Assembly (NCBI GenBank): GCA_965232515.1
Contig: CBDDPY010000002.1
Span: 5,280,001-5,344,000 of the forward strand
DNA length: 64,000 bases
Origin: Alphaproteobacteria bacterium
GTDB lineage: Bacteria; Pseudomonadota; Alphaproteobacteria; GCA-2731375
Direction of reading: 5' to 3'
Positions 1,814 to 33,871 of the stretch are shown here, piece by piece. The notes beneath the pieces are model-generated. The model saw nothing but the letters and a program-made list of their open reading frames with translations, had not been told where the DNA came from and ran no database searches. The translations under genes were made by a program, and so were the position numbers. Each line of letters opens with the position of its first letter. The first letter of the stretch is position 1.

Positions 1814-1854
1814 GCCCCCGTGGCGGAATTGGTAGGCGGGCGTGACTCAAAATC
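1814..1854 (+). pseudogene. 5' half of host tRNA-Leu(CAA), truncated at the left att site
   Basis: GCCCCCG TG GCGGAATTGGTAGGCGG G CGTGA CTCAAAA TC, then non-tRNA sequence. The acceptor strand GCCCCCG and anticodon strand CGTGA pair with CGGGGGC and TCACG in the 3' half at 33818-33871. Confidence 0.9.
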
Positions 1855-1972
1855 GGCTTAAAAGACCCAAAACCGGTTTCATAATTCATATAAAACAATA
1901 GGTTATTGACGATCCCGGCTGATGTGATACCTTACACAGGTCTTTCACATTCTGGCCATTCGGGAGGGGTCA

Positions 1973-3151
1973 ATGGCCGATGCGAACATCAGCCTGATGG
2001 GCGGCAAGCTCCACGTCTACAAGCGGGAGAACAGCCGCTACTGGCAGTGCTCCACCTACCTGGCCGGCAGGAACCGGCGGGTCAGCACGAAGGAAGAAAG
2101 CCTGGCCAACGCGAAGCTCTTCGCGGAGGACTGGTATCTTGAACTACGCGGCAAATACCGCCGCGGCGAGGTCAAGAACGAGAAGACCTTCCGCGAGGCG
2201 GCGAAGGTGTTTGAGCGCGAGTTCGAGATCATCACCGAGGGCGAGCGCAGCCCCCGCTATGTGCAGGGCCACAAGGAGCGCCTGCGGGTGCATCTAAACC
2301 CGTTCTTCGGCAACAAAGGCCTTTCGGAGATCACGCCCGGTCTGGTCCAGGAATACCGGCTACATCGCCGCGAGACGTCGCGCACAGGCAAGCCGCCGGC
2401 GCGCAGCACGATTCATCAGGAAATCGTGTGCCTGCGACAGGTGCTTAAGACAGCCATCCGTCATGGCTGGTTGCAGCATCTGCCGGACCTGTCGATGCCT
2501 TACAAGACATCGGGAAAACTGGAGCATCGAGCGTGGTTCTCACCAGATGAATACCGCAAGCTTTACGAGGCGACGCGCCGCCGTGCCCAACAGGCAAAGG
2601 GCCGCCGCTGGCAATGGAATTGCGAACAGCTGCATGATTTTGTGCTGTTCATGGCCAACACGGGCCTGCGGCCGGACGAAGCCCGTCGTCTTCAATACCG
2701 CGATGTGGAGATTGTCGAGGATGACGCCACCGGCGAAACCATCCTTGAAATCGAGGTCCGGGGTAAGCGCGGCTTTGGCTACTGCAAGAGCATGGCCAAT
2801 GCGGTGCGTCCGTTTGAGCGCCTGGTCAGGCGCAACGACCCGGAGCCGTCAGACCTGATCTTTCCGGGCAACCACCGGGAGCTGCTGAACACCATCCTCG
2901 AGGAAGAGGGCCTGAAGTTTGACCGGGATGGCCGGCGACGCACGGCGTATAGCCTGCGCCACACCTACATCTGCTTTCGCCTCATGGAAGGGGCGGATAT
3001 TTACCAGATCGCCAAAAACTGCCGTACCAGCGTCGAGATGATCGAGAAGTTTTATGCCTCTCACATCAAGACCAGCCTCGACGCCGCTGCGATCAACGTC
3101 CGCCGCCAGCGGCCGAACCGCAACAGCCGACAACCGGCCAGTCCTGCCTAA
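1973..3151 (+). CDS. Tyrosine recombinase/integrase (Int1)
   Basis: N-terminal arm-binding-like region; catalytic motifs TGLRPDE, RGKRG, YSLRHTY and IEKFY; adjacent to the left att site. Confidence 0.92.
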   Translation: MADANISLMGGKLHVYKRENSRYWQCSTYLAGRNRRVSTKEESLANAKLFAEDWYLELRGKYRRGEVKNEKTFREAAKVFEREFEIITEGERSPRYVQGHKERLRVHLNPFFGNKGLSEITPGLVQEYRLHRRETSRTGKPPARSTIHQEIVCLRQVLKTAIRHGWLQHLPDLSMPYKTSGKLEHRAWFSPDEYRKLYEATRRRAQQAKGRRWQWNCEQLHDFVLFMANTGLRPDEARRLQYRDVEIVEDDATGETILEIEVRGKRGFGYCKSMANAVRPFERLVRRNDPEPSDLIFPGNHRELLNTILEEEGLKFDRDGRRRTAYSLRHTYICFRLMEGADIYQIAKNCRTSVEMIEKFYASHIKTSLDAAAINVRRQRPNRNSRQPASPA

Positions 3152-3197
3152 CGACGGACTTGGCCGTTGCGCTGCCAACGGTTATGTATGGCCCCGT

Positions 3198-3284
3198 GCG
3201 GGCGTGGCGGAATTGGTAGACGCGACGGCCTCAAAAGCCGTTCTTCGAAAGAAGGTGTCGGTTCGACTCCGACCGCCCGCACCA
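3198..3284 (+). tRNA. tRNA-Leu(CAA), island-encoded, intact
   Basis: Acceptor GCGGGCG/CGCCCGC plus ACCA, D arm GGCGGAATTGGTAGACGC, anticodon arm ACGGC-CTCAAAA-GCCGT, long variable arm CTTC-GAAA-GAAG, T arm GTCGG-TTCGACT-CCGAC. Confidence 0.95.
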
Positions 3285-3385
3285 ACAAAAGGGCCTGTCC
3301 CGTTCATGTTATGGGCGAATCAGCCACGCGGATATATTGTGGTGGTTCATGTTCATTAGTCCTTAGATAATGATAGGTAGCCGCA

Positions 3386-4519
3386 ATGGCACACGATTCC
3401 TCCCAAGTAGTTCTTCCGGATTTGGACTACGAAATGTGGGAGACAATTCGGGCGGAAATTGCAGCCGAGTACGCGGAACCTCACAACAAGCCCTGGATTT
3501 TGGGCTTCTCAGGCGGCAAGGACAGCACCGTCGTCGCCCACCTGGTTATCGAGCATTTGTTGTCGCTGCCGCGCAGCGAAAGAATCCGTGAGGTTCATAT
3601 CGTTGCCAACGATACGCTCGTGGAGAGCCCGTTGGTCATCTCGCATATCTGCAAGGTCCAGGACGATATCCGCAAGGCCGTCGATGCGTTTCAGCTGCCT
3701 GTCGTTGTCGAGACAACGTCACCGGACCCTGAGCATACCTTTTGGGTAAACCTCATCGGACGCGGATATCCATCGCCGAATCGGTCCTTCCGCTGGTGCA
3801 CGGATCGGATGAAGATTCAGCCGACCAGCACTTACGTCAAAAAGCGCGCCCATGAATCCGGTGAAGTGATCTTGCTCCTGGGTGTAAGGCGCGACGAAAG
3901 CGCAACGCGCGCCGGGAGTGTCGCCCGCTATGACAACGGTGAGCGCCTGAACCGCCATAATGACCTTCTGGGCTGCTGGGTTTTTCGTCCGATCGTTGAC
4001 GTGACAACGGATGAGGTTTGGGAGTTGCTGGCGACGGAGGTTCCGCCGTGGGGTGGGTCGCACGACGACCTTATAAAGCTGTACCGCAATGCCGGTGGTG
4101 GTGAGTGCCCGGTCGTGACCAGCCAGAGGGATGCGCCGTCATGCGGCACGACGTCGTCCCGGTTCGGTTGCTGGACATGTACGGTGGTCGAAAAGGACCG
4201 AAGCTTGCAGGGCTTCGTTGATGCGGGTTTTGGAGAGTTTACACCCCTGCTCGACTTTAGGGACTGGCTCGTATCGATCCGCAATGACCCGGAGAGACGG
4301 TTGGCGCGTCGCCGCGATGGACGCGTTACGATTGCATCAAATGGTATTCACATACCTGGCCCCTTTACACTCGCTACCCGAGCAGAAATACTGGAGAGAC
4401 TACTGAAGCTACAGCAGGAAGTCGGGCGAGAGCTTATTTCAGAAGCGGAGATAGAACGTATCCGAAGCCTTTGGGCGGAGGATGCTCTCAGCGCTGCGGC
4501 ACGGTCCGCAGCACAATAA
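3386..4519 (+). CDS. dndC: DNA phosphorothioation sulfurtransferase DndC (PAPS reductase family), short form
   Basis: PP-loop FSGGKDS, DTLVE, FWVNLIGRGYPSP, RWCTDRMKI and SRFGCWTCTVV motifs. Confidence 0.9.
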   Translation: MAHDSSQVVLPDLDYEMWETIRAEIAAEYAEPHNKPWILGFSGGKDSTVVAHLVIEHLLSLPRSERIREVHIVANDTLVESPLVISHICKVQDDIRKAVDAFQLPVVVETTSPDPEHTFWVNLIGRGYPSPNRSFRWCTDRMKIQPTSTYVKKRAHESGEVILLLGVRRDESATRAGSVARYDNGERLNRHNDLLGCWVFRPIVDVTTDEVWELLATEVPPWGGSHDDLIKLYRNAGGGECPVVTSQRDAPSCGTTSSRFGCWTCTVVEKDRSLQGFVDAGFGEFTPLLDFRDWLVSIRNDPERRLARRRDGRVTIASNGIHIPGPFTLATRAEILERLLKLQQEVGRELISEAEIERIRSLWAEDALSAAARSAAQ

Positions 4520-4549
4520 ATACTAGCTCCGCTGTATCGGGGGTCTTCG

Positions 4550-4756
4550 ATGCCGAAAAACGTTGTCGTGTTGCTGCAAAGCGACGAAGGGCGCTCTTTG
4601 GTTCGTAAGAAGTGCCGCGCAGCAAGTGTGCGCATGAGTACGGTCGAAGAATTGATAGAGGCTGAGCTGGATCAGCAGGGCAAGATGCGGAAGGCCGGTC
4701 TTTGGGAAGAATTTGACCGGGTATTCGACGAAGCCGCTCCGGAGGATGCAGAGTAA
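4550..4756 (+). CDS. Small Dnd-associated protein resembling the DndC C-terminal helical domain
   Basis: 68 aa between dndC and dndD; stop overlaps the dndD start (TAATG); pattern ELIEAE...RKAGLWEEFDRVF. Confidence 0.65.
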   Translation: MPKNVVVLLQSDEGRSLVRKKCRAASVRMSTVEELIEAELDQQGKMRKAGLWEEFDRVFDEAAPEDAE

Positions 4757-6822
4757 TGCATTTGCGTGCCGTGGATCTCCGGGACTGGCGCTCTTACCGA
4801 CACGCTCGATTTGAGTTTCCCACACCAAACGACGGCCGCAACGTCATTCTGGTTCGAGCACCCAATGAATACGGCAAGACGTCGTTCTTCGAGGCGATCG
4901 CTCTCGGTCTGTTCGGTCGAGAGGGGTTGTTCCTGGTGCCGCGCGCACGTGTCGCGACCAATGGTGATCTTTCCGAACGACAGGCCGTCACCTACAGCCA
5001 GTTCCTGGCCGGTACGCTCCACAGGCGTGCGCTTGCCCAGGGGCGGCAGAGCTGTTCCGTCACGCTTGAGTTAGAAGACGAAGACGGTGAACCCGTCGAA
5101 TTAACGCGCAAATGGCACTTCGCGTCGAATGGCCAGCACAAGCCTTACGACGATGAACTTCTGATTTTTGAAGGCCACGGCCGTCGCCCGGTGGCGCCGC
5201 CTGCTACGGTGACTGATCGCGACGGCTGGTACCGGGAATACATTGCCAACACCTTTATCCCTGCGCCGCTGGCTGAGTTCTTTCTCTTCGACGGAGAGCA
5301 GGTTCAGCGATACGCCAACCGGGGCATGTCGGGGCAAATTCGCATCGGCATTGAAGGCCTGCTTGGTCTTCCTGTTCTCCGAAGCCTGAAGGATTCGCTC
5401 CTGCGATATGCGCAGGCACGCCGGTCCAGTGCCGCGTCGCCCTCCGATGAAAAGGTCCGGGCAGTGGAGCTTGATATCGATCGCCTGAAACAGGATATCG
5501 CAAGCAAGGAGAAGGTGCTCGAAGACGTGGATTCGCTCCTTCCGGGATTGCAGTCGGAAAGCGATGAACTTGCGCAGCGTCTCGGCGGCGGCGGTGAAGG
5601 CACAATGGCCATGGTCGCCGACCTTATCCGCGAGGAAGAACGCTTTAGGTCGGAGGCGGGCAGGCAAACTGAAGCTCTTATGAAGCTGCTTGCCGAGGAT
5701 GTTTCGCTGGCGCTGGCTGGTTCCGCGCTCCGTGAACAAACGGTCAAGCGCTTGCAAGCGGAAGAGTTGCGCGAAAGCTGGGAGTCCGGCCGTAACCAGG
5801 GGAATGTCAATCTGGACCGCTACATCGCAGACCTGTCTGGTCGCGTTGCGAGTCTGGAACCGCCCATTGAAGGACAGCAGCGTGATGATGTTCTCGATGC
5901 GGCCCGCACGGCCTGGGAAGCGCTTTGGCACCCACCGCCGGAGGGATGTGCCGACGACTATCTCCACAAGGGACTGACTGGATCGGCGCGATCACAGGCA
6001 ATTGAGCGGCTGACCGCAATCGGTGAGCGCTCGGGCAGCGAACTGGCAAAGCTGATTGCCCAGCGACGATCATTCGTGGAAATGGCGGAAGCGAAGAAAC
6101 GCGAATGGTTGTCTGTCGAACAGAATGCCCCTGAGGCGGAGCGCCTGAGTGAACGCCTGAAGGAGGTCAGCGAAGAGATCGGTGAACTCAAGACCCGGCG
6201 CGACACGGCGAAGCGGGAGATTGAGTCTCTGCAAGGCGAGCTGGCTGCGCGCCTGCAGGAGTTTGGCCGCTATACCGACAGCATCGGACGCGGGGCGCCG
6301 GCGCTTCGTCGGGCTTCTCAAGCCGAAGCGGCCGCCAAGCTCATTGACGATATTCTCAGGGATGCAGTGCCGACGCAGGTGAATGCTGTGGCCGATGCGA
6401 TGACGAAAGCGTGGAAGTCGATGGCGCACATGGACTTCCGTGTCGATCGCATCGAGATCACTGCGGACTGTGAAGTGAAGATGCTCAATAAGAAGGATGA
6501 AAACCTGCACGACGTCGAAAAGTCTGCCGGTGCCAGCCAGATTTTTACCCAGGCACTGATTTGGGCGATCAACCATGTGAGCGGTCAGGAGTTCCCGTTC
6601 ATTGTTGATACGCCTTTGGCCCGGCTAAGCCGGGATCATCGTCTCGGCGTATTGAAAACCTTCCCTGATCGAAACGGCCAGGTGATCCTGCTTTCGACTG
6701 ACGAAGAGGTGGTAGACGACAAGCTTGAGGCGATTGAGAAGCGGATCGCGGCTGCCTATCAGCTGCGTGTGCGTGACGATGATGGCGTGGCGGTGACCAC
6801 TATCGAAGAAGACAAGCTGTAG
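4756..6822 (+). CDS. dndD: DNA sulfur modification SMC-like ATPase DndD
   Basis: Walker A APNEYGKTS, FFLFDGEQ, long coiled coil, signature KSAGASQI, Walker B IVDTPLARL, ILLSTDEE; follows dndC. Confidence 0.88.
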   Translation: MHLRAVDLRDWRSYRHARFEFPTPNDGRNVILVRAPNEYGKTSFFEAIALGLFGREGLFLVPRARVATNGDLSERQAVTYSQFLAGTLHRRALAQGRQSCSVTLELEDEDGEPVELTRKWHFASNGQHKPYDDELLIFEGHGRRPVAPPATVTDRDGWYREYIANTFIPAPLAEFFLFDGEQVQRYANRGMSGQIRIGIEGLLGLPVLRSLKDSLLRYAQARRSSAASPSDEKVRAVELDIDRLKQDIASKEKVLEDVDSLLPGLQSESDELAQRLGGGGEGTMAMVADLIREEERFRSEAGRQTEALMKLLAEDVSLALAGSALREQTVKRLQAEELRESWESGRNQGNVNLDRYIADLSGRVASLEPPIEGQQRDDVLDAARTAWEALWHPPPEGCADDYLHKGLTGSARSQAIERLTAIGERSGSELAKLIAQRRSFVEMAEAKKREWLSVEQNAPEAERLSERLKEVSEEIGELKTRRDTAKREIESLQGELAARLQEFGRYTDSIGRGAPALRRASQAEAAAKLIDDILRDAVPTQVNAVADAMTKAWKSMAHMDFRVDRIEITADCEVKMLNKKDENLHDVEKSAGASQIFTQALIWAINHVSGQEFPFIVDTPLARLSRDHRLGVLKTFPDRNGQVILLSTDEEVVDDKLEAIEKRIAAAYQLRVRDDDGVAVTTIEEDKL

Positions 6823-6834
6823 AGACCGTCCGCC

Positions 6835-8367
6835 ATGCCTCTGAGCATCATGGATGTCGTGAATTCGCAGTACCGTACGACAAAGGCGGCGGACGATCAG
6901 TGCGACCAGCTTCTTCGGCGATTGGGTTACAGGGTGCGGTACCTGCCGGCGCGCTTGGCAATTGCGCGGTCGCTGTCTCTACTTGAACAACCGGAGCCGC
7001 TTGGCTCGGGCGAAGAGGAAGAGATGGCCGTTGGTATCCGCGGTCAGCAGCTCTTCGGAGACGGTAGCGACCCTGCGGCCTGGATGGCGCTGATTTCCCA
7101 GCGATCAGGCACCAGCGACCTCGAACGCCGTGAGTTTCAGAATATTGTCGGCGCACACTGGCAACGCGGCGCGGACTTGTTGGCGAGGGATTGGGAGGAA
7201 TCGGCTGAGAGCCTTGGCACATTCGTGTCGCGTCTGGCTGAGCTTGCCAATCTCGCCATAGATGATGGTGGCAAGTCCTTCGGTGGAGAGTTTGTTGAGT
7301 CCCCGGCACCGCTTGCGACAAACGTGACGCTGCCAGTCGGGCCTGTTGCCGAGGACGCCGAAACGGGCGAGCCGGTGGAGTTTCCGCTGAACGCTCCCGG
7401 CGGCAGTCCGCACATGGCAATCATGGGTGGCACCAACTCCGGCAAGACATATACGGCGGTGACGATGCTGAAGCGGCTTAGGTCCATCGGGCCGGTGCCG
7501 ATTCTTGCGTTTGACTTCAAGGGTGACCTGTCCGAGCGGCTTGCGCCTGACATAGGTGCGGACGTGGTGTCGCCGCCCAGATCGCCGGTACCGTTGGACG
7601 TCCTTGCGGTGCAGCTGCAGGACGAAGTTGGACTGCGTGAGGCGGCGGGGCGCATTCGCGAGTCGATCGGTCGCGTAAAGAGTTCAAGAATCAGCGGCGT
7701 TCAGTCTGATGCCCTGCGCGAGGCGGTGTTTCAGACGCTGCGAACACGGAGGGATGATACACCGTCAACGCTGAGCAACGTGTCGCGCGCACTGGAAGCC
7801 GAGTACCAGCGGCGAAACCGCCGCCCTGACGAATTGACGGCGACCCTCAACGAGCTGAATCAGTTTTCCCTCTTCGATCCTCAAATGAGGCCGGAGGAGT
7901 TTTTTAGCCGGAGCTGGATTATCCGGCTGCCGCAGGATAGTACGGCTGAAGTGCGCCGCCTGATCATCAACCTGACGCTCGATGCGCTTGATCGGTGGCT
8001 AAACTCGCAAGAGGACGCCCCTGAGGTGGACGGCCGACGTGCATTGCGCCACGTGTGTATGCTCGATGAAGCGCATGTGATTCTGGCGACGAAGCTGCCG
8101 GCCCTGACAAACCTGATCCGAATGAGCCGGTCCAAGGGCGGGGTCATTATGCTCGTCTCGCAATCGCCGGACGATTTTGAAGGCGAGGAAGAAGGCTTTT
8201 TAGACAACATGGGGCTGGTGCTAGCTTTCAATACGCAGGCGAAAGCCGGACCGACGCGTCGGATTTTCGGTGCCGGTGCCTCTCTCCCTGACCTGACAGT
8301 CGGTGAAGCCCTGTGCCGAATTAGGTCGGAAGCCCGGACGCGCAGGATAACAGCGTGGCGGGCGTGA
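6835..8367 (+). CDS. DndE domain fused to a HerA/DUF87-like P-loop ATPase (DndEi-like)
   Basis: N-terminal ARLAIARSL DndE-like helix; C-terminal GGTNSGKT, FDFKGD, LDEAH and SQSPDDF motifs. Confidence 0.75.
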   Translation: MPLSIMDVVNSQYRTTKAADDQCDQLLRRLGYRVRYLPARLAIARSLSLLEQPEPLGSGEEEEMAVGIRGQQLFGDGSDPAAWMALISQRSGTSDLERREFQNIVGAHWQRGADLLARDWEESAESLGTFVSRLAELANLAIDDGGKSFGGEFVESPAPLATNVTLPVGPVAEDAETGEPVEFPLNAPGGSPHMAIMGGTNSGKTYTAVTMLKRLRSIGPVPILAFDFKGDLSERLAPDIGADVVSPPRSPVPLDVLAVQLQDEVGLREAAGRIRESIGRVKSSRISGVQSDALREAVFQTLRTRRDDTPSTLSNVSRALEAEYQRRNRRPDELTATLNELNQFSLFDPQMRPEEFFSRSWIIRLPQDSTAEVRRLIINLTLDALDRWLNSQEDAPEVDGRRALRHVCMLDEAHVILATKLPALTNLIRMSRSKGGVIMLVSQSPDDFEGEEEGFLDNMGLVLAFNTQAKAGPTRRIFGAGASLPDLTVGEALCRIRSEARTRRITAWRA

Positions 8368-8375
8368 CGGTGAAG

Positions 8376-9437
8376 TCAGGTTCCGCCGTAGGCTAATTGG
8401 AAGGCGTGCCAGGTTACTTCTGGACGCCCAAGAAGGTCGGGCTTCTGGCCCAGATCCTTCACAATCAGACCGTTCACTTCGGCAAGGTACCGTATTTCGT
8501 CGGCTGTGACGCTGTAGATGCCGCGTTCAAGCTGCGCCGGTCCATGCCGCAGGCTCACGTAAATCTTTCCAGCAGGCTTCAGAAGAGATGAAAGTACGGT
8601 CAGGGCCTTCGGTCGGTCCTCGGGATGCAGGTGCATCCAGACAGCACTGACGAGAATATAGTCATATTTTTGCTCGAAATTCAGGACTTTGTTCAGCTCA
8701 GGGAGTGCATCCTTTATCCATCGGATGCCTGATTTCGGATGCTGATTGCGCGCGAGAGCGAGCATCTTCTCGGAAGGCTCCACGGCAACGACATCTGCGC
8801 CGTGTAAAGCCATCCATGCTGCATCTCTCCCGGAGCCGGTGCCTACATCGAGCACATTCGGTTTCTTGTCTGCTGATTTGGTTATCTCGGCTGCGAGGTC
8901 GGGGTGAATATCCTCGAACTGGACGGACTCGTAGTTGTCAGCGAGGTCACGCGCGTAGGTGTCGTAATAGGCCAAAGATCGCAGGCTACGGTCTGTATCG
9001 GATGGTTTGGCCTCATTATTCACTAATAACGCTCCAAAGAGACCAAGGCTGATGGCAGCCGCTGCGCCGAGCAGGCATTGAAATACAGTTCTGACCAGCC
9101 TGGACCGGGTAAAGAAACCCGTCCCTTCGCCTGACACGTACCCTGCTGCGTTGTAGGCCTCGATCCAGTCGAGATACTTCTGCATGAGGTACCGAAGGCG
9201 GGTCAGCACAAGTATCAAGCCGATATTGCCCACCGCCGCGAGGAAGAGCAGTGCAAGCTTGAACAGAGCGAAATCGCCAACCTTGGTGACGCCGAACCAT
9301 AGGCCGCCGGTGAGGGTCATGGCAATCAGCGGGATTTGCCACATCAACTGGTTCAAAGACCTGAAGGTGATGCAATTCTGTTCGTATGCGACCTGCATCC
9401 GCTCGAATTCCATATCTTCAGGCGATTTGGTCATCAC
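8376..9437 (-). CDS. Membrane domain fused to a class I SAM-dependent methyltransferase
   Basis: About 3 hydrophobic helices in the first 140 aa; then LDVGTGSGRDA, VEPS, SAVWMH and LKPAG. Confidence 0.8.
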   Translation of the reverse strand: MMTKSPEDMEFERMQVAYEQNCITFRSLNQLMWQIPLIAMTLTGGLWFGVTKVGDFALFKLALLFLAAVGNIGLILVLTRLRYLMQKYLDWIEAYNAAGYVSGEGTGFFTRSRLVRTVFQCLLGAAAAISLGLFGALLVNNEAKPSDTDRSLRSLAYYDTYARDLADNYESVQFEDIHPDLAAEITKSADKKPNVLDVGTGSGRDAAWMALHGADVVAVEPSEKMLALARNQHPKSGIRWIKDALPELNKVLNFEQKYDYILVSAVWMHLHPEDRPKALTVLSSLLKPAGKIYVSLRHGPAQLERGIYSVTADEIRYLAEVNGLIVKDLGQKPDLLGRPEVTWHAFQLAYGGT

Positions 9438-9592
9438 TCCACCGGATCAAAGATGTGCAGGAATGGCTGAATGTGGCGGCAGCATTGGGACTGACCATCA
9501 GGCTCCGATCGGCACCGGATCGGCTAGCTGTGTCATATCTGTGTCATGGATTTTACTCGGGCGTGGAAACTTCTCATAACCCTTTGAAATAA

Positions 9593-9637
9593 TGGCGACG
9601 ATGAGAAGATTCGAACTTCCGACCTACGCATTACGAA
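9593..9637 (-). pseudogene. 3' half of tRNA-Thr(CGT): att-site fragment
   Basis: Reverse complement reads TTCGTAA TGCGT AGGTC GGAAG TTCGAAT CTTCT CATCGTC GCCA (anticodon loop to CCA); no 5' half; 200 bp upstream of Int2. Confidence 0.75.
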
Positions 9638-9837
9638 CGTTGTCCGGCTGATTTTCAATAATTAAATAAATCAACAAGTTAAAAGTTCCTGACGCACTGC
9701 TCTAATAAGCAATATTGTATACTTTGAAGCATTTTTGGATTTTACTGTATCATAACTGTGTCACGGGTTATATTCAGAATGCCGCACGAACAAAAACATA
9801 TAAGACGATGAATACAAAATAAACGAAGATTTGACGC

Positions 9838-11160: not shown

Positions 11161-11226
11161 AGGTTGGCTTTTGCGCATTAGGTTTCCCGGCAGACATATT
11201 GAGCGGTGCCGGGCAAATCTTGGTCA

Positions 11227-11328
11227 TATACGCAAAAGCGCATAAACCATCCTTATACGGCTAAGCGCATAAAATTTCTCAATACGCATTAGCGTATATT
11301 GACATACATACTAAATACCGTATATTTT
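11227..11328 (+). promoter_or_regulatory. hipBA promoter with four 18-bp palindromic operators
   Basis: TATACG-N6-CGYATA-like boxes at 11227, 11254, 11281 and 11307; TTGACA at 11299-11304 with an AT-rich -10 near 11321-11328. Confidence 0.75.
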
Positions 11329-25873: not shown

Positions 25874-27700
25874 TTACTGCGCCATTGACAGATATTCGGA
25901 ACACAGATTTTCAATTATCCAGGTTCGCTGGTTTCCCCATTCCTTTGCAGCAATTCTCCTGTCTAAATGCGCATTCCTGTTTGTCGGCTCTTCGGCCCAA
26001 TAGGCGTAATCCAGCCAGCGAGACACTCGATAAGTTACATCTGGTCGAAAGTCCTCCCATTCTGCCACTTTTTTGGCAACCTCCGGCCGGATTACATATG
26101 AATCTTTGCGATAGTGTTTGAGAAATTCAGCTACCTTCAGGGCTGTTTGTCCTCCCATTGCAAAAACCAAATCGTGACCCCATTTTTCAAACAGGAGTTT
26201 CTTAAACTCATTGTCAAGATTATCTTGATCCAGATCTCTATAGATGAGGCCCTCATCAGCTGGATCTATGATAGGACCAGTCATGTGATTTGCTTCTCGT
26301 TGAGAGTCGTACCTTGTCTTTTGTTGGTCGCCTACACTCTCTAAAGCAAACCTTTCAACAAACGCAGATCTAAACTCCTTACACATTTTTGCCAGTACCG
26401 CCTTCGATGCGGCATTAATATTGTTTGCTTTAGTCCAATCTATGGGTTCGACGCTCCAAAGCCGAAGTTTCATGCATTCATCGATTAAATTTCCGTCTTT
26501 GTCTAAGGGCTGAGTTGACTGGTAGCACTTTGCGCCAAAGCCCTCCAGTTTTAGAAGCATTTCTTTAAGTTCATCCCGCTTGGCTTTAATTTCTTGCCTG
26601 AATTCGACAATATCTGTGTTAGAGATCGAAACTGTCGCGTTGAAGATTGAACTCAGCCTTTCGACCTGATTGTTAAGCCGCCTATGCGCCTTCAAGCCAG
26701 CCTTGACCGCCTCGTCCTGGAGGCTGGATCGAGAAAACTTCGCAGCGCCAGCCAATTGGACTTCAGTTGGCCAAACCTTCTTCTCTTTGTCGAATATCGT
26801 GTCGACTATCGTCAGTTGATGGTTCCTTGCTGCAGACGTGTAAATATTCAATTCTTTGATATGATTTGACAAGGCGTTTCTCACCGCACCAAAATCTTCA
26901 TAGTCATTGGAAATTCCCGAAACAACATCTATGCTATTCGCACCTATGAAGTACCCATAAGCTGATACAGACGCGATCTTTGATAGTTTATTAAGAAAGC
27001 TTGAAAAGTCACGTCTTACCTTTCCACTGAAACTTGCGCCCTTTGCGTGGGCAGACATGCTTTCCTCAACTTCACTTATGATTTGATTAGAGATGTTTCT
27101 TGCCGAATAAACTGCGACGACAAGCGCAAACCGGTTTTGACTCGAGACAAAATGTGTACCGCATTTACTGTAAAATTCGTCCGGGCTTTCTGAATTTTTG
27201 AGTGCGGCCTTTCCTAATTCCGTAAGCTCTATCTCCGAGGCAATAACGTCCCCAAAATCAATGTCTGCAAAGAGCATCCAGTGGAGGGAGTCGGAATGAA
27301 AATCTAAATGATCAAATGTTGATTGAGAATAATTAAAGCCTCCCGAGACCGCACCAAATTTAGCATTGGCCTTTGCGGAAATACTTTCTGATACTGTGGA
27401 TATCAAATCTTGTTCGCTGGATATTTTTTTCAATCTAAACAGAGCGCTCTCAATCGGGTTCTTTAAAAGCGACTTATCAATTTTTTCCCCATTTATCTTT
27501 ATTGTTTGAATTTTGTCAGCTAAAGCTGGGATATGACTGAAGCAAAGCGTCGGATTTATTGAGATATTCCGATAATCAACACCTTGACCAAGATATACTT
27601 TTTTTGTCGGCATATATCCATCAATGCTATCAGCATATGCGGAACAACTTGCCAAGATAGACAAATAAACTAATTGGCGGAGTTTGGACTTTTTCAACAT
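25874..27700 (-). CDS. Secreted low-GC protein, possibly MACPF-like
   Basis: Signal peptide MLKKSKLRQLVYLSILASCSAYA, LGQGVD, Ser/Ala/Gly-rich strand region and FYSKCGTHFVSS; strongly AT-rich. Confidence 0.55.
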   Translation of the reverse strand: MLKKSKLRQLVYLSILASCSAYADSIDGYMPTKKVYLGQGVDYRNISINPTLCFSHIPALADKIQTIKINGEKIDKSLLKNPIESALFRLKKISSEQDLISTVSESISAKANAKFGAVSGGFNYSQSTFDHLDFHSDSLHWMLFADIDFGDVIASEIELTELGKAALKNSESPDEFYSKCGTHFVSSQNRFALVVAVYSARNISNQIISEVEESMSAHAKGASFSGKVRRDFSSFLNKLSKIASVSAYGYFIGANSIDVVSGISNDYEDFGAVRNALSNHIKELNIYTSAARNHQLTIVDTIFDKEKKVWPTEVQLAGAAKFSRSSLQDEAVKAGLKAHRRLNNQVERLSSIFNATVSISNTDIVEFRQEIKAKRDELKEMLLKLEGFGAKCYQSTQPLDKDGNLIDECMKLRLWSVEPIDWTKANNINAASKAVLAKMCKEFRSAFVERFALESVGDQQKTRYDSQREANHMTGPIIDPADEGLIYRDLDQDNLDNEFKKLLFEKWGHDLVFAMGGQTALKVAEFLKHYRKDSYVIRPEVAKKVAEWEDFRPDVTYRVSRWLDYAYWAEEPTNRNAHLDRRIAAKEWGNQRTWIIENLCSEYLSMAQ

Positions 27701-28001
27701 CGAACTACCCTCCAAGTCTGTGCGATTCTAATGTAGATACGCACGTTGCTGATGAAATTTGAGGCGCAGTACGAGGTGCTGGAGGCGTTGGTCACCAAGT
27801 TGAATGAAACCACCACGCTGGTGGAAAACATGGAGATCTGTATGGACGCATCGCAGCATTACGACCGTAAAGAAAACCGACTTGTATTTCAATAAAAAGA
27901 AGGCGCTCCCCATGTTTGGCTCCCCTTGCCATCTGTTCGTCTTATGGGGCGTATACAAACTGCTGACTGACGTTTCTTGACACATGCTGGAAGCGCACCA
28001 G

Positions 28002-28325
28002 TCAGAACAGCGTCATCTGCCGATTCCGAGCCTCCTGCTCGATCCAAACGTCGCCCTCGGCCGCCTTGTCCAAAGCCTCGCGGATGTAATCCGCAGGCCC
28101 GCCGGCGGCCTCAATGTTCGCTGCTGGCTCAAAATGAGACAGGCACCCTGTCTCGGTGAGCGGCAATGGAGAACGCGCCGGCTCGACGCTCGTGATTTCG
28201 ATGTGCGCCATCGCCGTGCCGAACACGTCACGATAAGCTTTCGACCAATCGGCACAGTAGCGCACTTCGATGCGAATGCCGCGCCAGTCGAGGTGATGCA
28301 CCTCGCAAGGGTGGGAGGTGGTCAT
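28002..28325 (-). CDS. Conserved hypothetical protein of mobile elements
   Basis: ATG overlaps the DUF2958 stop (ATGA); WRGIRIEVRY and PLPLTETG motifs. Confidence 0.65.
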   Translation of the reverse strand: MTTSHPCEVHHLDWRGIRIEVRYCADWSKAYRDVFGTAMAHIEITSVEPARSPLPLTETGCLSHFEPAANIEAAGGPADYIREALDKAAEGDVWIEQEARNRQMTLF

Positions 28326-28681
28326 GCGACCACCTTCCCTTTGGAGCGCGCCTCGTTCGCATAGGCCGACAGAGGTTTGTCGGCTTCGAAGTAGCGGTCG
28401 CGCTCGATGCCGAGGCCGTACGGGAGCCGCACACTCGCCAGCTCGCTGATGCGGACGGAGCCAAGCTCCGGGGTGCCGAAGCCGAGGTCGCACAGACCGA
28501 AGGCGATGTCGGTATCGTCCGGGTCCAGTTCGGTCAGCAGCCAGGTGGCCGCACCGACCGGGTTAAACAGTTTCACGACGGGTCGATGGTCTAAAGGCTC
28601 GAGGCTCTCCATCAACCGCTCGTGATTGATGCGTCCGTTGCGCAGCAGCTTTCGACGGATTTCCTGTGTCAGCAGTTTCAT
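28322..28681 (-). CDS. DUF2958 domain protein
   Basis: PVVKLFNP.GAATWLLTELD, FGLCDLGFG.PELGSV and IERD.YF. Confidence 0.88.
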   Translation of the reverse strand: MKLLTQEIRRKLLRNGRINHERLMESLEPLDHRPVVKLFNPVGAATWLLTELDPDDTDIAFGLCDLGFGTPELGSVRISELASVRLPYGLGIERDRYFEADKPLSAYANEARSKGKVVA

Positions 28682-28713
28682 CGCTGATTCTCCTATTGGG
28701 AGAGCGCGAGGGG

Positions 28714-28959
28714 CTATTGCCCCCCGGCTCCCGTGTCGTTGTCGAAGTCCGTCGGCATGCGCAGGGTCAGCTTGCCGTCGAATCTGATCGGCATGGCCTT
28801 CAGCTGGACGTTGAGGCCGTTGCCGTCCTCGTGCATCCAGGCTGCGCCGATGCGGTTCCACTGGTTGGACTTGCCGTTTCCGCGTTCCTCTACATGGAAG
28901 ACGATGAAGTCCGGGTTGTTGGTGGCCTTGTTGCCGCCAGTCTTGCGTTTGGTCGCCAT
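28714..28959 (-). CDS. Small leading-region protein (DUF736-like fold suspected)
   Basis: WNRIGAAWMHEDGNGLNVQL; GGAGAG RBS. Confidence 0.65.
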   Translation of the reverse strand: MATKRKTGGNKATNNPDFIVFHVEERGNGKSNQWNRIGAAWMHEDGNGLNVQLKAMPIRFDGKLTLRMPTDFDNDTGAGGQ

Positions 28960-29476
28960 GGTTCTCTCTCCTTTTGATCTGTTGGGCCGCGCCCATCGCG
29001 GCCTTTCCGGCTGGGCGACTTGGACGAAGAGTTGAGGGACGGACGTCATACGGTCTTCTCGGGAGACCGATTGCGGCGGAAGATCGTTGCGAACGGTCCG
29101 CTTCGGCCTATCGATTGCTGGGGAAAAAGGCCGGCGTGGGTGGCTGGCCCGTTCAAAAGGTTTGGGAGACCGCGACCGGCGAAGAGCGGCCACAAGCCCA
29201 ACTACCGGCACCGGCGGCGGCGAGAACTGCGAAGCGCGAGACCTGTGGAACGGCGGCGCCTTGCAAGGTTTGGACACGGGCACGCGCCGCGCACCGAAAG
29301 AAATGCCGATCGCCTGACAGGCGAGAAGCGAATGACTGCTTTGGCAATTAACTGCTGGTGAGAATTGCGTGTTTCAAATTGAAAGAATTGACGGCTAAAC
29401 TGCTCTACTGAAGCTGGTGCAGTAAGTGGTCAGGCACGACGGACGGTCGCGGGAACGTTCCTCGTAAGAAGGGGGA

Positions 29477-29908
29477 ATGACCATGTACTCGATCTGGTTA
29501 CCGCTGTTCTTTGTCCTGACGCTGGTGCTTGCGGTCAGGAGCTTTCTCGTACTTCGACGCAATCGCTACAATCGCGGTTGGGGAACGCGCTGGCCTCTGG
29601 CAATAGCGACGGCGCTATACACGCTGGCGGTACTTGTGTGGTGGGGCGATCCGGGACTCGGTTTCGGCTGCCTGCTCATCGGGGCCGCCTTTTCGATCGT
29701 CAATCTGATCGTGAGGTTTTTTACGCGAGGGACCCGGAAGGAACCCGCCGCTGCGCCTGAGACAGCGGCGCAACCTGGAATAGCGTCTCAATCGAGCGAC
29801 GACGGTTCGGCAACTGCGGGTCAGCAGACTAGCGCCACCGTGTCTGCATCGGTCGTATCGGCGGAAGGTGTCGGCGGGTTCGGCTCGTTCGCCGGCGCCG
29901 CGGACTGA
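29477..29908 (+). CDS. Membrane protein (3 TM plus low-complexity tail) upstream of coupling protein 2
   Basis: Three hydrophobic segments; GGGGG RBS; 10 nt before the next ATG. Confidence 0.65.
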   Translation: MTMYSIWLPLFFVLTLVLAVRSFLVLRRNRYNRGWGTRWPLAIATALYTLAVLVWWGDPGLGFGCLLIGAAFSIVNLIVRFFTRGTRKEPAAAPETAAQPGIASQSSDDGSATAGQQTSATVSASVVSAEGVGGFGSFAGAAD

Positions 29909-29918
29909 GGGGGATCGC

Positions 29919-31745
29919 ATGTCGCTTTCGAACATGTTCATTCAGATGGCTCAGAGGAAGCTGACGGAGAAGGCTTTCGAGGGCGGCTCGCGGATAGGCT
30001 TCAGTGTGGCGCTTAAACGACATGCTGAACAGCTGGGAGACGCCGGCACAGCGCGCGCCCGAGAGGCGTTCGATCACTATCTGAAACACACAGGTGATTC
30101 TGGACTCGCGACGGAACTCGCCATCGAAGAAGCCTATGAATGGTTGCGGAAGCAACAGGAGCCGGAACCGGCCCCGGACATGCACGGCTCGGCCCGGTGG
30201 GCCTATTTCTCGGAGTTGGAACGCGGAGGACTACTCGGCGACCCGTACGAGATGGACAACCTTTCCAGCCGGATCGGTTTGGGCAAGCTTGCCGTCGCCC
30301 AAAACGATTCGGGCCAGTCAGCCGAAAACCTGAACAACGAAGTTTTCTGGTCGGGCGAAGGACCGATGCTCACCGTGGCTCCGACACGGTCGGGCAAGGG
30401 TATGAGCCAGATCGTTCCGACGCTGTTGCGCTATCCTGGCAGCGTGCTGGTGATGGACCCGAAGGGTGAGAACTACAGACTCACGGCGGGCTACCGCCAC
30501 ATTCAGGGTTCGCGCATTTTCAAGCTGGACCCGTTCAATGTCCTGAACGGAACGAAGGATGCCAACGATCCAATCGACTACGGTGAGACGGACGCGTTCA
30601 ACCCGCTGGACTATCTGCGCACCGAAAGCGATGCGCGTACACTTGCCCACCTGCTGCATCCGCCGGTCCCGGCGGGCCAGTCGGCTGGCGCGAAGTTCTT
30701 CGCGGACGAAGCGATCAACTTTCTCACTGCGGTGATCCTGTTCGTCAGCCAATCCGCTTCACGAAAGAACCTGGCTGAAGTCCGGCGTGTGACGACGCTG
30801 GACCCTGAGGATCAGAAAAACTTCCTCGCGGCGATGGCGAAGAGCGACAACGACACCGTCGCCAGTGAAGGCAAACTCGCCCTTCAGAAGCCGCGAGACA
30901 AGCGTGTGGAGCTTTTCCGCAGCCTGAACTCGGAGCTGGCCATCTGGAGCGAGAAAGCCCTCCAGAAAGCGACAGAGCGCTCCGACTTCAACTTCGCCGA
31001 CATGAAGGACGAAACGATCACGGTCTACGTGATCCTGCCGTTCGATCAGATGGAGGCGTTCAGCAGCTTCATTCGCATCGTGTTCACGACGGCGATCGGC
31101 GCGATGCTGAAAAGCCAGCGCAACCTTCAAATACCGGTTCTCTTCCTGATGGACGAGTTTCCAAGCATGGGTGCGCAGGACAAGATCGTCGACAGCGTGA
31201 GTTACCTTTCGGGCTACGACGTACGTCTGTGGATCATCACGCAGACGATCAAGCGACTGACGGACACCTACCCGACAAAGTGGGAGGACCTGATTGAACA
31301 GGCTGCGGTCAAAACCTTCATGGACGCCCGCACCTCGACAGCCGAGCTGGTGTCACGTTGGATGGGGCTTTCGACGGTGGCGTACGAAACGAAGAGTTCC
31401 GGGTTTTCGTCCAGCTACTCGTCAGCACGGGAACCGTTTTCGACTGGCGCTGCTGGCGGCGGCGAAAGCCAGACGACGGGCATGGCCTATACGGGCAGAC
31501 CGCTGATGACGCCTGATGAAGTGCAGGAGTGGTTCGGACGCAAGTACCAGAGCCATCCGAATCTCGGCTTGCTGACCGCCTGCTTCGTCGAAGGCCAGCG
31601 GCCTTTCGCGACCATGCGTCCGTTCTGGTTCCTGAACCCGTCGCACACGGCGATGGTGGAGCGTGGCCGCGATCATCTCGGGGGACTGGCGCCGGGCGCA
31701 TGGCGCGAAAAAGCCAGCGGTTCAGCGGCCAAGCGAGCGATCTGA
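29919..31745 (+). CDS. VirD4/TraG-like coupling protein (copy 2), no evident N-terminal TM
   Basis: HGSARWA, APTRSGKG, DPKGEN, FNPLD, LMDEFPSMG and GRPLMTPDEV. Confidence 0.9.
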   Translation: MSLSNMFIQMAQRKLTEKAFEGGSRIGFSVALKRHAEQLGDAGTARAREAFDHYLKHTGDSGLATELAIEEAYEWLRKQQEPEPAPDMHGSARWAYFSELERGGLLGDPYEMDNLSSRIGLGKLAVAQNDSGQSAENLNNEVFWSGEGPMLTVAPTRSGKGMSQIVPTLLRYPGSVLVMDPKGENYRLTAGYRHIQGSRIFKLDPFNVLNGTKDANDPIDYGETDAFNPLDYLRTESDARTLAHLLHPPVPAGQSAGAKFFADEAINFLTAVILFVSQSASRKNLAEVRRVTTLDPEDQKNFLAAMAKSDNDTVASEGKLALQKPRDKRVELFRSLNSELAIWSEKALQKATERSDFNFADMKDETITVYVILPFDQMEAFSSFIRIVFTTAIGAMLKSQRNLQIPVLFLMDEFPSMGAQDKIVDSVSYLSGYDVRLWIITQTIKRLTDTYPTKWEDLIEQAAVKTFMDARTSTAELVSRWMGLSTVAYETKSSGFSSSYSSAREPFSTGAAGGGESQTTGMAYTGRPLMTPDEVQEWFGRKYQSHPNLGLLTACFVEGQRPFATMRPFWFLNPSHTAMVERGRDHLGGLAPGAWREKASGSAAKRAI

Positions 31746-31806
31746 TCGAAAAGCTGGACGAACATCGAAAGCAACTGGATTACTCGTACGGCTAAGCGCG
31801 GCAAAT

Positions 31807-33429
31807 TTACCTCTGCTTGTCACGTGATCTGTCCTCGCGCTCTTCTTGGCGCATATCATCGCGAAGGTCTGGTTCCTGCTCCCTGACGCTCTCCCACCAG
31901 CGATCGTTATCGGAGCCCTGATCGTCGCGCCGCCCTTCTGTCTCGGATCGAGACACCTCGCGCGTTTGATCGCGTGCCGAACCGTCCTCGTGGCGGGCAT
32001 CGACGCGATCCGGCTCAAGCTCGTTTTCCCACCATTTGTCGTTATCGACGCCACGGCTGCGCTCGTACTGCCGATCCGCCTCGTCGAAGTCGCGGTCCAT
32101 GCGCTCCTGAACCTCCTGCGGTGCAGGTTCGCGCTTGAGCCCCATTTCGCGTTCACTCAGTTGCGCTGACTGCTGCATCAGCCGGTGGATCTTTTCTGTC
32201 TTCTGATCATCGGACAGCAGCGGGTCTTTCTGGACCATCTCGAGATCACGTTCGATCTGGCGCCGCTCGGCGCTTATCGCGCGCTCGGAACGCCTTTCTT
32301 CGATAGGTGCTTCGCGGATTTGCTCGGGTGGCTCGGTCCGAAGATATGGCTGTACACGGTCACCGTCCTGCTCATCGTCTCGATCGTCTCGTTGAGCATG
32401 GTCGCTTCCCGGGGACACGGGGCGCCCGTCCCGATCCGGAACGGGCCGATTTTCCCGGTCCCAAAGGTCGAGTAGTTCTCGCTGATCGGTTTCTCCCAGG
32501 CCGAGTCCCCGTTCCAGCTCTTCGCGATCTACCCGCGTGATCAAGTGCTCACGCTTGGCGTGCAGGGCTACCAGGTTTTGGTCCTGAGCACGGATGTCGT
32601 CGAGTTTCTCCGGCTCACGTTTGCCGAGTTCGCTGATTTGACGCTGAGCTTCAACAAGCTCCTTGTAGTTGGTTTCCATAGCCTGAACCTCCTGCGAGCG
32701 CTCGACCCTGCTGCCGGTGTCGATCTTGCGGTAGTCCACCTCGCGAACGTTACCCCACTTGCTGCGGTATCTGACGACTTTCGACTCGGGTTGCTTACCG
32801 CGTGCGACCATTTCCCGGACACGCGGCCCCTGATGGACCTGAGGCGGCCGATCGATACCCTGTGCCTTCAGGGAACGATGATCGACCGATTTGGCGATGC
32901 CTGCATTTTTCAGGGCGGCGTTAGTCAGCTCTTCCCATGCCCGGCGTGTGCTGGTGACGAACATATTGCTGTCGAGCGACCGATTTTTCTTCCCGAAAGC
33001 GTCTCCTTCGATCGGTCGCGTCGTGAGCAACATGTGACCATGAGGGTTGCCTTCCTCATCGTCGTGGATGTTGAAGTCGACAATCAGTCCCAGGGCCACG
33101 AACCGCTGGGCGAAGGCGCGGCCCAGCTCGATGTTCTGTTCGAGTGACATCTCTACCTGAAAAGCGAGTTGAACTTCCTTGCATAGCCTCGCGTCTTTAC
33201 GCTTCTCCGCTGCCTCTGCCCTGTTCCAGAGTTGCTCGCGATCATGTGCCCACAGGGGCGTGTCATCCGGCGTGATGATCTCACTATGGGTGACGTCCTG
33301 TTTTCGCGAGAAATCGGAATACTGCTTCTCGCGCTCGTTCCAGAGTTTTCGACTGCTGCGATACGCCGCTGCCGCGACCGCACTTTTGCCATCGCGCCTG
33401 CTGACGTTTTTTATGGTCAGGTGATACAT
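31807..33429 (-). CDS. MobA/MobL (MOBQ) relaxase, copy 2
   Basis: YHL...SAVAAAAYRS, LWNRAEAAEKRKDAR, NIH, NPHGHMLL and VDHRSL; charged C-terminal tail. Confidence 0.92.
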   Translation of the reverse strand: MYHLTIKNVSRRDGKSAVAAAAYRSSRKLWNEREKQYSDFSRKQDVTHSEIITPDDTPLWAHDREQLWNRAEAAEKRKDARLCKEVQLAFQVEMSLEQNIELGRAFAQRFVALGLIVDFNIHDDEEGNPHGHMLLTTRPIEGDAFGKKNRSLDSNMFVTSTRRAWEELTNAALKNAGIAKSVDHRSLKAQGIDRPPQVHQGPRVREMVARGKQPESKVVRYRSKWGNVREVDYRKIDTGSRVERSQEVQAMETNYKELVEAQRQISELGKREPEKLDDIRAQDQNLVALHAKREHLITRVDREELERGLGLGETDQRELLDLWDRENRPVPDRDGRPVSPGSDHAQRDDRDDEQDGDRVQPYLRTEPPEQIREAPIEERRSERAISAERRQIERDLEMVQKDPLLSDDQKTEKIHRLMQQSAQLSEREMGLKREPAPQEVQERMDRDFDEADRQYERSRGVDNDKWWENELEPDRVDARHEDGSARDQTREVSRSETEGRRDDQGSDNDRWWESVREQEPDLRDDMRQEEREDRSRDKQR

Positions 33430-33596
33430 CGCCGTTCTCGATCACCTACGTAGCTCACAGGTCGGACGGCAGGCAGGCTCGACGTGGTCCCCCTCACTTC
33501 GGGGGGACCCGGCGAGACTGCCGGGGTGCAGGGGGTATCCCCCTGCCGCACTTCCGCGTTCGTGGCGGCAGCTTCGCTGCACCGCGAACACGGCAG

Positions 33597-33642
33597 CGTC
33601 GCGTCAATGCGTACGCGTTGCGCGATGCGTAAGTGCGCCGTT
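33597..33642 (+). other. Putative MOBQ oriT 2
   Basis: Imperfect inverted repeat (CAATGCGT/ACGCGTTG) followed by TAAGTGCGCC at 33630-33639, upstream of relaxase 2. Confidence 0.75.
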
Positions 33643-33817
33643 CTTTTTGAATGTTACATCAACGGGATGGCGACGAGGACCGCCAGAAGCACCCGAGTCG
33701 GCGCCAGGCGGGATATCAAATGCTTAGCTGGCCCAGAAATACACAGTTTCTTACACATACACAAATACATTCGAAAATATATCAATAATATCAAATAATT
33801 ACGATATACCCAACAAC

Positions 33818-33871
33818 ACTCAAAATCACGTTTCTCCGGAAGTGCCTGTTCGAGTCAGGCCGGGGGCACCA
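33818..33871 (+). pseudogene. 3' half of host tRNA-Leu(CAA) at the right att site
   Basis: ACTCAAAA TCACG TTTCTCCGGAAGT GCCTG TTCGAGT CAGGC CGGGGGC ACCA, preceded by non-tRNA AT-rich island sequence. Confidence 0.9.

Follow-up and report, generated by a model that had tools for sequence, protein, structure and literature searches.

What becomes of a transfer RNA (tRNA) gene when a mobile element inserts into the middle of it and the gene is not put back together? This question is raised by a stretch of 64,000 nucleotides from an alphaproteobacterial genome, referred to here as the window. It contains an island of 31,973 bp (positions 1855-33827, with one copy of the core sequence counted), which sits within a 7.33-Mb contig and whose insertion point is the anticodon loop of the chromosomal tRNA-Leu(CAA) gene. 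The likely answer, held here with good confidence, is that this mobilizable island of about 32 kb has split the gene and supplies its own complete copy, which would take over the decoding of UUG codons. The features of the window are located in Table 1.

The split host gene and the complete copy

An earlier reading of this DNA, the original prediction, held that the host tRNA is cut in the anticodon loop and rebuilt at neither junction. Both tRNA searches and the sequences of the two halves bear this out. ARAGORN finds only two tRNAs in the window, a Val gene at 260-341 and the complete Leu(caa) gene carried by the island. Rfam, run at a permissive threshold over positions 1-36000, finds the island gene alone. 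No tRNA is called by either program at the left junction (attL) or the right junction (attR), and therefore neither junction is a tRNA.

The halves were also predicted to share only a short core and to restore the tRNA stems when joined, which proved correct. The core, ACTCAAAATC, is the sole repeat common to both halves, and the window holds no other exact copy of it. Taken alone it is at chance level, with three matches at up to one mismatch against 2.2 expected in the window; its significance comes from its tRNA context and not from the frequency of the 10-mer. Joining 1700-1854 to 33828-34000 in silico yields an 85-nt tRNA-Leu(caa) with complete acceptor and anticodon stems.

The empty site can be seen in a genome of the same genus (G001), where an uninterrupted 85-nt gene lies between matching flanks. 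On the left the flanks agree at 92% identity along 555 nt, and on the right both genomes have the same globin gene. Compared with this intact gene, the host halves show three differences in 85 nt, two of them in the D arm. At the changed D-arm positions all other tRNA-Leu genes seen read GGTAGACGC or GGCAGACGC. The changes are A21G and C25G in our own numbering, and C25G breaks the G10-C25 pair. Decay of the host fragments may accordingly have set in; beside a flank divergence of 8%, a total of three changes over 85 nt is only suggestive.

Independent sequence covers the left junction. A separately built Logan contig of one sequencing run (X1) spans 1700-3400 with no differences, and a Logan contig of a second sample (X3) spans 1783-2332 and crosses attL without a difference; both come from one study, and X1 may be the source sample of the assembly. 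Because these contigs agree across attL, that junction is not an assembly artefact, a possibility which the original prediction had raised against itself. The X1 and X3 contigs have no loose end at the core of the kind that excision would give, rare forms being dropped from contigs. The G+C content of the island lies at about 0.56-0.63 and falls to 0.43-0.44 at 26-28 kb; that of the flanks is 0.63-0.72.

The island tRNA begins 47 nt past the stop codon of int, the gene for the integrase Int1. As predicted, it is complete and has the anticodon of the broken gene on a different anticodon stem. Its anticodon arm reads ACGGC, CTCAAAA and GCCGT where the host arm reads CGTGA, CTCAAAA and TCACG, and its acceptor stem is followed by an ACCA end. 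Its identity is 65.5% with the host gene and 83.9% with the island copy at a Planctomycetaceae locus. Judged by these identities, the island tRNA is foreign to its host.

It is also the only tRNA-Leu(CAA) gene found in the assembly. A scan of all four contigs (7.39 Mb), a count that the original prediction had asked for, recovered one Leu(caa) gene, the island copy, and a pattern search agrees. The other Leu genes are one each of taa (C2:485896-485984), gag, tag and cag. In 596 long open reading frames (ORFs), UUG makes up 9.5% of Leu codons, or 9.4 per 1000 codons, and UUA 0.39% of Leu codons.

Two side observations concern tRNA calls. Short contigs of X1 and X3 match the island tRNA in its first 31 nt only (3194-3224). 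Their depth is 656-850, where the island contig has 95, and they presumably represent other tRNA-Leu genes or a commoner organism in the sample. In the genome of the window itself (G000), ARAGORN also reports a 90-nt 'Thr(ggt)' of atypical sequence (C2:6535854-6535943), a Cys(aca) and a Tyr(ata), which are probably false positives.

A mechanism can be proposed from this arrangement. The attachment site of the element (attP) would share only the 10-bp ACTCAAAATC with its target. With the common part limited to this core, conservative recombination makes both junctions hybrids, and no functional host gene remains. The complete foreign tRNA, which lies in the same direction as the broken gene, would then take over UUG decoding, and the copy is presumably both expressed and needed. 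It may be co-transcribed with int, possibly from the surviving promoter of the host tRNA. In the consensus scan the promoter-like site of the host gene is the only strong one in the window's left end, and it remains directed towards the 5' half, int and the island tRNA. Among related islands, the gap between the int stop and the tRNA is often too short for a separate promoter.

Carrying a whole gene instead of a matching 3' half would free the element from needing a host with a matching tRNA sequence. Its requirement in the target would shrink to the nearly universal anticodon loop and one or two flanking bases, and the layout may in this way widen the host range.

Int1 and its relatives

Relatives of Int1 were collected by a contig scan of one genome per species, which gave 433. 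The best 80 of these (61-82% identity) were examined, and together with the window and one further locus they form a set of 82 loci. Loci were classed by the 330 nt before int, and tRNAs after int were sought both with and without introns.

In 25 loci the target is rebuilt: a complete tRNA precedes int at a distance of 95-217 nt (12 for Arg, 7 for Met, 3 for Phe and 3 for Leu), and none of the 23 evaluable loci of this class has a tRNA after int. In 33 loci only the 5' half of a tRNA-Leu, ending in the loop, precedes int (CAA 15, TAA 18); here a tRNA-Leu follows int in 27 of 31 evaluable cases. Thirteen loci, often within long contigs, show the core alone, with repeats of the TTACACA type found at the right end placed before it (L019, L026, L028, L029, L034, L042, L044, L045, L049, L058, L070, L075 and L082), and 11 of them have a tRNA-Leu after int. 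They are probably attP-like junctions, arising from tandem arrays of two elements or from circular forms. Another 11 loci are unclassified, several of which carry the 3' half of a Met or Phe tRNA.

The non-rebuilding type thus accounts for 46 of the 82 loci. A tRNA-Leu lies 13-319 nt after int in 38 of the 44 evaluable loci with a non-rebuilt Leu junction, split or core-only, and in 37 of these 38 the gap from the int stop is 13-112 nt. Non-rebuilt junctions and a tRNA-Leu of the element's own are linked across the family, and a tRNA-Leu downstream of int, noticed originally in the window alone, goes with 38 of 44 evaluable non-rebuilt loci against 0 of 23 rebuilt ones. The further proposal of complementation in trans by a whole gene agrees with this link and with the sole Leu(CAA) gene of the assembly; the complementation itself is what we infer from them.

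Rebuilding and non-rebuilding integrases are interleaved in a tree of the 82 sequences, a quick tree supported only by the Shimodaira-Hasegawa-like approximate likelihood ratio test (SH-aLRT). Six changes between the types are needed, and well-supported branches force at least three. The window integrase itself pairs with one that rebuilds a tRNA-Met (SH-aLRT 96). Host acceptor stems vary widely among the target genomes and the core is constant; on the island side, the acceptor strand GCGGGCG is found in 15 of 23 parsed loci.

Two loci (L022 and L030) carry an island tRNA whose first 26 nt are identical to the host 5' half, where most loci differ. This hints that the gene may have been captured from the host gene or have undergone gene conversion with it. 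One locus (L034) carries both a Leu(taa) and a Leu(caa) tRNA after int.

Half of the replacement genes are interrupted. Nineteen of the 38 contain an insert of 203-259 nt, and a plain tRNA search missed all 19. The Rfam model Intron_gpI matches every one of these inserts at 32-59 bits, with the gathering score reached by five. In 16 the exons read ..GGACTT / AAAATCC.., the classical CTT/AAAA site of Leu(UAA) introns, and three are CAA copies. The interrupted genes lie 13-112 nt after int in L013, L021, L022, L026, L038, L040, L041, L043, L055, L059, L064, L068, L073, L076, L080, L082, L087, L088 and L091. The island tRNA of the window has no intron.

Int1 is a divergent member of its superfamily. 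It matches Pfam Phage_int_SAM_5 with 25.3 bits (cut-off 22.3) and Phage_integrase with 20.2 bits, below the cut-off of 27.1. No NCBIfam match was found, and no PDB sequence match with either the single sequence or a 29-sequence profile. An AlphaFold2 model built from the 29-sequence alignment has a mean predicted local distance difference test score (pLDDT) of 82.1. Foldseek aligns the model with 53 PDB entries at E <= 0.001, the best being XerA (5hxy, 6.6e-9). All 34 of the matches listed are tyrosine recombinases or integrases, with XerA, Tn1549 Int, XerH, lambda Int and Cre at the top. Int1 is accordingly modelled with the tyrosine recombinase catalytic fold of lambda Int, Cre and Xer. Residues R233, K265, R329, H330 and Y361 are invariant in all 29 sequences; they are putative catalytic residues, assigned by motif and not by superposition.

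Short repeats at both ends of the island are candidates for arm-type integrase sites. A TTACACA motif lies within 110 nt before int in 59 of the 82 loci. To the left of the core it is found in 10 of 13 attP-like loci; where host DNA occupies that place, the counts are 1 of 33 and 0 of 25. In an attP, the TTACACA-type repeats would flank the core where arm-type sites are expected. No tandem core copy lies inside the island; the only near match, at 11691-11700 on the minus strand, is inside hipA.

The family is found mainly outside phage collections. A set of 50,697 phage records gave one weak match to Int1, and IMG/VR gave 3 loci, against 433 in genome contigs.

Rival readings and the recoded anticodon stem

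Several points weigh against the replacement of the host gene by the island copy. The assembly is 96.25% complete by marker genes, so that a second Leu(CAA) gene may have been missed. A tRNA-Leu(UAA) may read UUG by wobble, and since such a tRNA is present, the island copy need not be essential. The consensus scan found no promoter-like site directly before the island tRNA. Two RNA runs (X7 and X11) gave 0 reads on 1700-3400, which would bear on expression only if the organism is present in them, and none of the samples listed as containing the stretch is recorded as RNA. Lastly, 6 of the 44 evaluable non-rebuilt loci have no tRNA directly after int (L058, L060, L067, L070, L071 and L092). Three of these exceptions have features of their own: in L070 there is a Leu 3' half of the classical sort, in L071 an intron-bearing copy lies at a distance of 2.3 kb (6437-6726, minus strand), and the hybrid junction of L060 scores as a tRNA in Rfam.

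A different account takes the island tRNA for passive cargo or for a relic, such as a former host's gene acquired through imprecise excision, with UUG covered by tRNA-Leu(UAA) and no functional link to the split. The tRNA-Leu(taa) gene that it requires does exist at C2, and the identity of 26 nt with the host half in L022 and L030 would fit capture from a host lineage. Against it stands the association of the carried tRNA with non-rebuilt junctions (38 of 44 loci, and 0 of 23 rebuilt ones), which spans at least three switches between the types on the quick Int tree and is hard to explain without selection. The relatives that target TAA genes also bear on it, as they break the reader of UUA. 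We know of no Leu tRNA other than Leu(UAA) that reads this codon. Five genomes that carry TAA-type islands were searched, and in all five the attR half was the sole Leu(UAA)-like 3' part found without an interruption (for three of the genomes, its distance to int is about 22.7, 34.7 and 52 kb), these being metagenome-assembled genomes searched with a limited pattern. Passive cargo is for these reasons rated as improbable. Almost no weight can be given to the idea that the split is an artefact of assembly or binning, given the long contig, the X1 and X3 contigs across attL, the synteny of the flanks with G001, and the recurrence of the layout in dozens of unrelated assemblies. Comparison among loci leaves the takeover by the island copy well supported; the idea that the copy is shielded from its own integrase is more tentative.

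According to this shielding idea, the replacement is recoded at positions 31 and 39 so that Int1 cannot target its own tRNA, which would prevent destruction of the tRNA or deletion of int. The original prediction stated that the changed stem keeps only the 7-nt loop of the core. The loop is indeed kept, together with one further base of the 10 bp. For comparison, Leu(CAA) genes were taken from a class-wide sample of 201 genomes; the background consists of 150 listed of 186 matches, counted by hand with small errors possible. The search pattern required AGACRC and GTTCRA, and invariance of those bases is not a conclusion that the sample allows. The sequence GACTCAAAATC is present in 116 of the 150.

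Recoding is more frequent among island copies than in this background. Positions 31 and 39 form a pair other than A-T in 6 of 17 intron-free island CAA copies and in 4 of 150 listed genes, one of the four being the island tRNA of the window (Fisher p = 7e-5). Of the 17 copies, 7 retain a contiguous ACTCAAAA, as do 119 of the 150 (p = 0.0015, with rows that are not independent). Of the ten copies without it, six have another 31-39 pair and four have C32T alone. The intron interrupts the core at the DNA level in each of the 19 copies that have one, and the exons retain ..GGACTT / AAAATCC..; this pattern fits shielding, and simple inheritance as well.

Other counts speak against shielding. The full 8-nt core is kept in 7 of 17 CAA copies and in all three intron-free TAA copies, and support for blocked self-targeting, as originally predicted, is mixed. 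C32T, responsible for four or five of the changed copies, is frequent among ordinary genes too (26 of 150 listed). Rare stems adjoin an Int1 relative in only one of five background genes. The 13 attP-like junctions suggest that tandem insertion at hybrid sites is tolerated. On balance shielding by positions 31 and 39 is a tentative idea, somewhat less probable than its opposite. A broader version may be stated with equal reserve: that islands of the Int1 family, in several phyla and often mobilizable, swap a split tRNA-Leu for their own copy and shield it either by recoded loop-flanking bases or by a self-splicing group I intron that splits the core, the arm of the spliced tRNA being normal. 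We consider this possible and would lean slightly against it.

Rare anticodon stems were also tried as a marker of island origin. This was rejected, as only one of the five (G117, locus L116) follows an Int1 relative, and two of the five stretches are cut near the tRNA. Separately, locus L113 (G204:C36, 15617-18624) has three Leu(CAA)-like matches from D arm to T loop within 3 kb, one of them with the rare GCC...GGC stem of the island tRNA in the window; ARAGORN calls only one tRNA there, and an Int1 relative is absent.

Island contents, precedents and meaning

Table 1. Location of the host tRNA parts and of the island features in the window
Feature	Position	Strand	Evidence and remarks
Promoter-like site of host tRNA gene	1767-1794	+	TTGACG, 16 nt, TATGAT; 10/12 matches in consensus scan; presumed function
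5' half of host tRNA-Leu(CAA)	1814-1854	+	Acceptor 5' strand, D arm, anticodon stem up to loop
Common core ACTCAAAATC at attL	1845-1854	+	Second copy at attR, 33818-33827
Candidate arm-type integrase sites before int	1931-1949	+	Two direct repeats, CTTACACA / CTTTCACA
Int1, divergent tyrosine recombinase, 392 amino acids	1973-3151	+	Pfam, AlphaFold model, Foldseek
Complete island tRNA-Leu(CAA)	3198-3284	+	ARAGORN; Rfam 60.8 bits
dndC-like gene	3386-4519	+	DndC 390 bits
dndD/pbeC-like ATPase	4756-6822	+	PbeC 712 bits, DndD 250 bits
DndE domain fused to HerA-like ATPase	6835-8367	+	Profile match
S-adenosylmethionine-dependent methyltransferase	8376-9437	-	Profile match; divergent
3' half of tRNA-Thr(CGT)-like gene, begins in anticodon loop	9593-9637	-	By eye; flanking CTGTGTCA-type repeats; no ARAGORN call
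Int2, second tyrosine integrase	9838-11160	+	Pfam Phage_integrase 92.9 bits
HipB-like helix-turn-helix protein and HipA kinase, toxin-antitoxin pair	11299-12941	+	Pfam
TraG/VirD4-type coupling protein	15004-16533	+	First mobilization set
Short MobA/MobL relaxase	16579-17778	-	First mobilization set
AAA_27 ATPase (1183 amino acids) and metallophosphoesterase	18634-23456	-	Pfam
ArdC-like anti-restriction protein	23555-24460	-	Pfam
DUF2958 protein	28322-28996	-	Pfam
VirD4/TraG coupling protein	29868-31745	+	Second mobilization set
MobQ-family relaxase	31807-33429	-	Second mobilization set
Candidate arm-type sites at right end, other side of attP	33740-33763	+	TACACA / TTACACA / TACACA repeats
3' half of host tRNA-Leu(CAA)	33818-33871	+	Loop onward: variable arm, T arm, CCA; core at 33818-33827

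By its gene content the island is an integrative mobilizable element. It has an integrase and attachment sites, relaxases and coupling proteins, without a full type IV secretion system. The MobQ relaxase scores 217.8 bits (cut-off 200), and no family of the VirB4/TrbE type was found among the island ORFs scanned. A Pfam search of 27 island ORFs, 11 of which have no match at all, found no capsid, portal, terminase or tail family. From these families the island is judged not to be a temperate phage, though it works like a phage system. No excisionase was recognised by eye among ORFs of 45-130 amino acids in the island gaps, a set to which hidden Markov models were not applied.

The cargo includes a dnd-like cluster at 3386-9437, in which neither DndA nor DndB was seen. 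As read from its genes, this is an unusual make-up for a system of the phosphorothioation type. A second integration module follows. The tRNA-Thr-like fragment lies within 9528-9767, just before Int2, and its acceptor strand differs from that of the host tRNA-Thr(cgt). Together with its repeats it looks like an intact, unused attP of the classical kind, belonging to Int2. A search for the ends of an element borne by Int2 gave no convincing repeat pair in 9300-18800, and the tRNA-Thr-like half reads better as an intact attP. An ORF of 613 codons at 25874-27715 (minus strand), in the part of the island with the lowest G+C, has no match in Pfam, PADLOC or NCBIfam. In a related island of 34.7 kb (genome G042, locus L112), positions 3320-4875 hold twelve evenly spaced sub-threshold matches to a model of clustered regularly interspaced short palindromic repeats (CRISPR).

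Williams is said to have described, in 2002, the anticodon loop as a sublocation used by islands that target tRNA genes. In classical islands of this kind, as presented in the available part of the Islander paper (PMC4383910), the crossover lies in the anticodon loop and int adjoins the junction, features that are shared here; 25 of the 82 Int1 loci behave in exactly the classical manner. Such islands differ from the window in that the classical attP includes the 3' half, so that the target gene is restored, whereas the attP of this island has only the 10-bp core and the whole gene lies elsewhere.

A closer precedent is tRNA-dependent lysogeny, described for the actinobacteriophages Fionnbharth, LeBron and Gaia (PMC10865867; Guerrero-Bustamante and Hatfull 2024). 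According to the available part of that article, the core is about 10 bp (8-17 bp), the tRNA is not reconstructed, and lysogens were shown experimentally to need the phage tRNA of the same isotype. Gaia uses an 8-bp core in tRNA-Leu-CAA and has its own Leu-CAA gene downstream of Int; its sister phage Omega rebuilds the gene and has no tRNA of its own. The original prediction treated the principle as new, a claim that does not stand, as this article had published it for phages in 2024, including a tRNA-Leu-CAA target with the tRNA gene downstream of Int. The mechanism is not new in kind, and the island is a counterpart of tRNA-dependent lysogeny.

The likeness covers the tyrosine integrase, an attB in a tRNA gene, the short core, the lack of rebuilding and the carried tRNA of the same anticodon, so far as the phage systems are set out in that part of the article. 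The contrast between Omega and Gaia also has parallels among the islands, where rebuilding relatives lack their own tRNA, in the pairs L070 against L049/L054 and L014 against the window. The carrier is different, being a mobilizable, non-phage element with relaxases, coupling proteins and defence cargo, in hosts from Gram-negative phyla in place of actinobacteria. In addition, the Int1 family is unrelated in sequence to the phage collection searched, and half of its replacement genes contain a group I intron. The tRNA requirement was demonstrated by experiment for the phages described there, and for the island we infer it from comparison.

Similar cases are reported for two Sinorhizobium meliloti prophages resembling Mesorhizobium phage vB_MloP_Lo5R7ANS, at tRNA-Leu(UAG) (PMC11476347), and for prophage Lj965 of Lactobacillus johnsonii, as discussed in PMC10865867. 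In what these sources present, the attachment site is likewise central in a tRNA-Leu gene, the gene is inactivated, and the carried tRNA has the same anticodon and resembles those of distant bacteria. They differ in being prophages, in the UAG anticodon in S. meliloti and in comprising two cases, and the available part of PMC11476347 contains no survey of an integrase family.

Group I introns in tRNA-Leu have their own literature. Williams's preprint on tRNA introns lists proteobacterial Leu introns and makes no mention of an adjoining integrase or a split host tRNA-Leu. The replacement tRNA-Leu(UAA) genes of the relatives are interrupted at the same classical CTT/AAAA site as the genes listed there; they differ in adjoining an integrase that has split the host tRNA-Leu, and the window copy is intron-free. 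A literature search that took in few subscription journals and no supplementary tables found no description of a non-phage mobilizable carrier, of a family spanning several phyla, or of an intron-bearing replacement tRNA-Leu linked to such an integrase.

The breakage and replacement of a tRNA is thus not confined to a few mycobacteriophages. A large family of non-phage islands, with 433 relatives of the integrase found, appears to use it recurrently as a strategy. Islands of this type escape tools that map islands by a regenerated tRNA and a displaced fragment. With its short and nearly universal core, Int1 is a candidate tool for integration in a broad range of hosts, provided that the vector keeps the tRNA gene; the available part of PMC10865867 notes the same need for a tRNA gene on an integration vector.

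When the halves of the host gene have decayed, the cell relies on the island tRNA, a dependence that would act as a simple addiction mechanism. If the proposed scheme is true, replacement of the whole gene would be what enables a single integrase family to function across Alphaproteobacteria, Acidobacteriota, Planctomycetota and Verrucomicrobiota. The foreign tRNA genes replace conserved host ones, and half of them carry group I introns. This offers a testable route to the patchy distribution of tRNA-Leu introns in bacteria, in which, under the same scheme, the islands would bring tRNA-Leu genes with introns from one phylum to another and the intron would be useful to the element that carries it.

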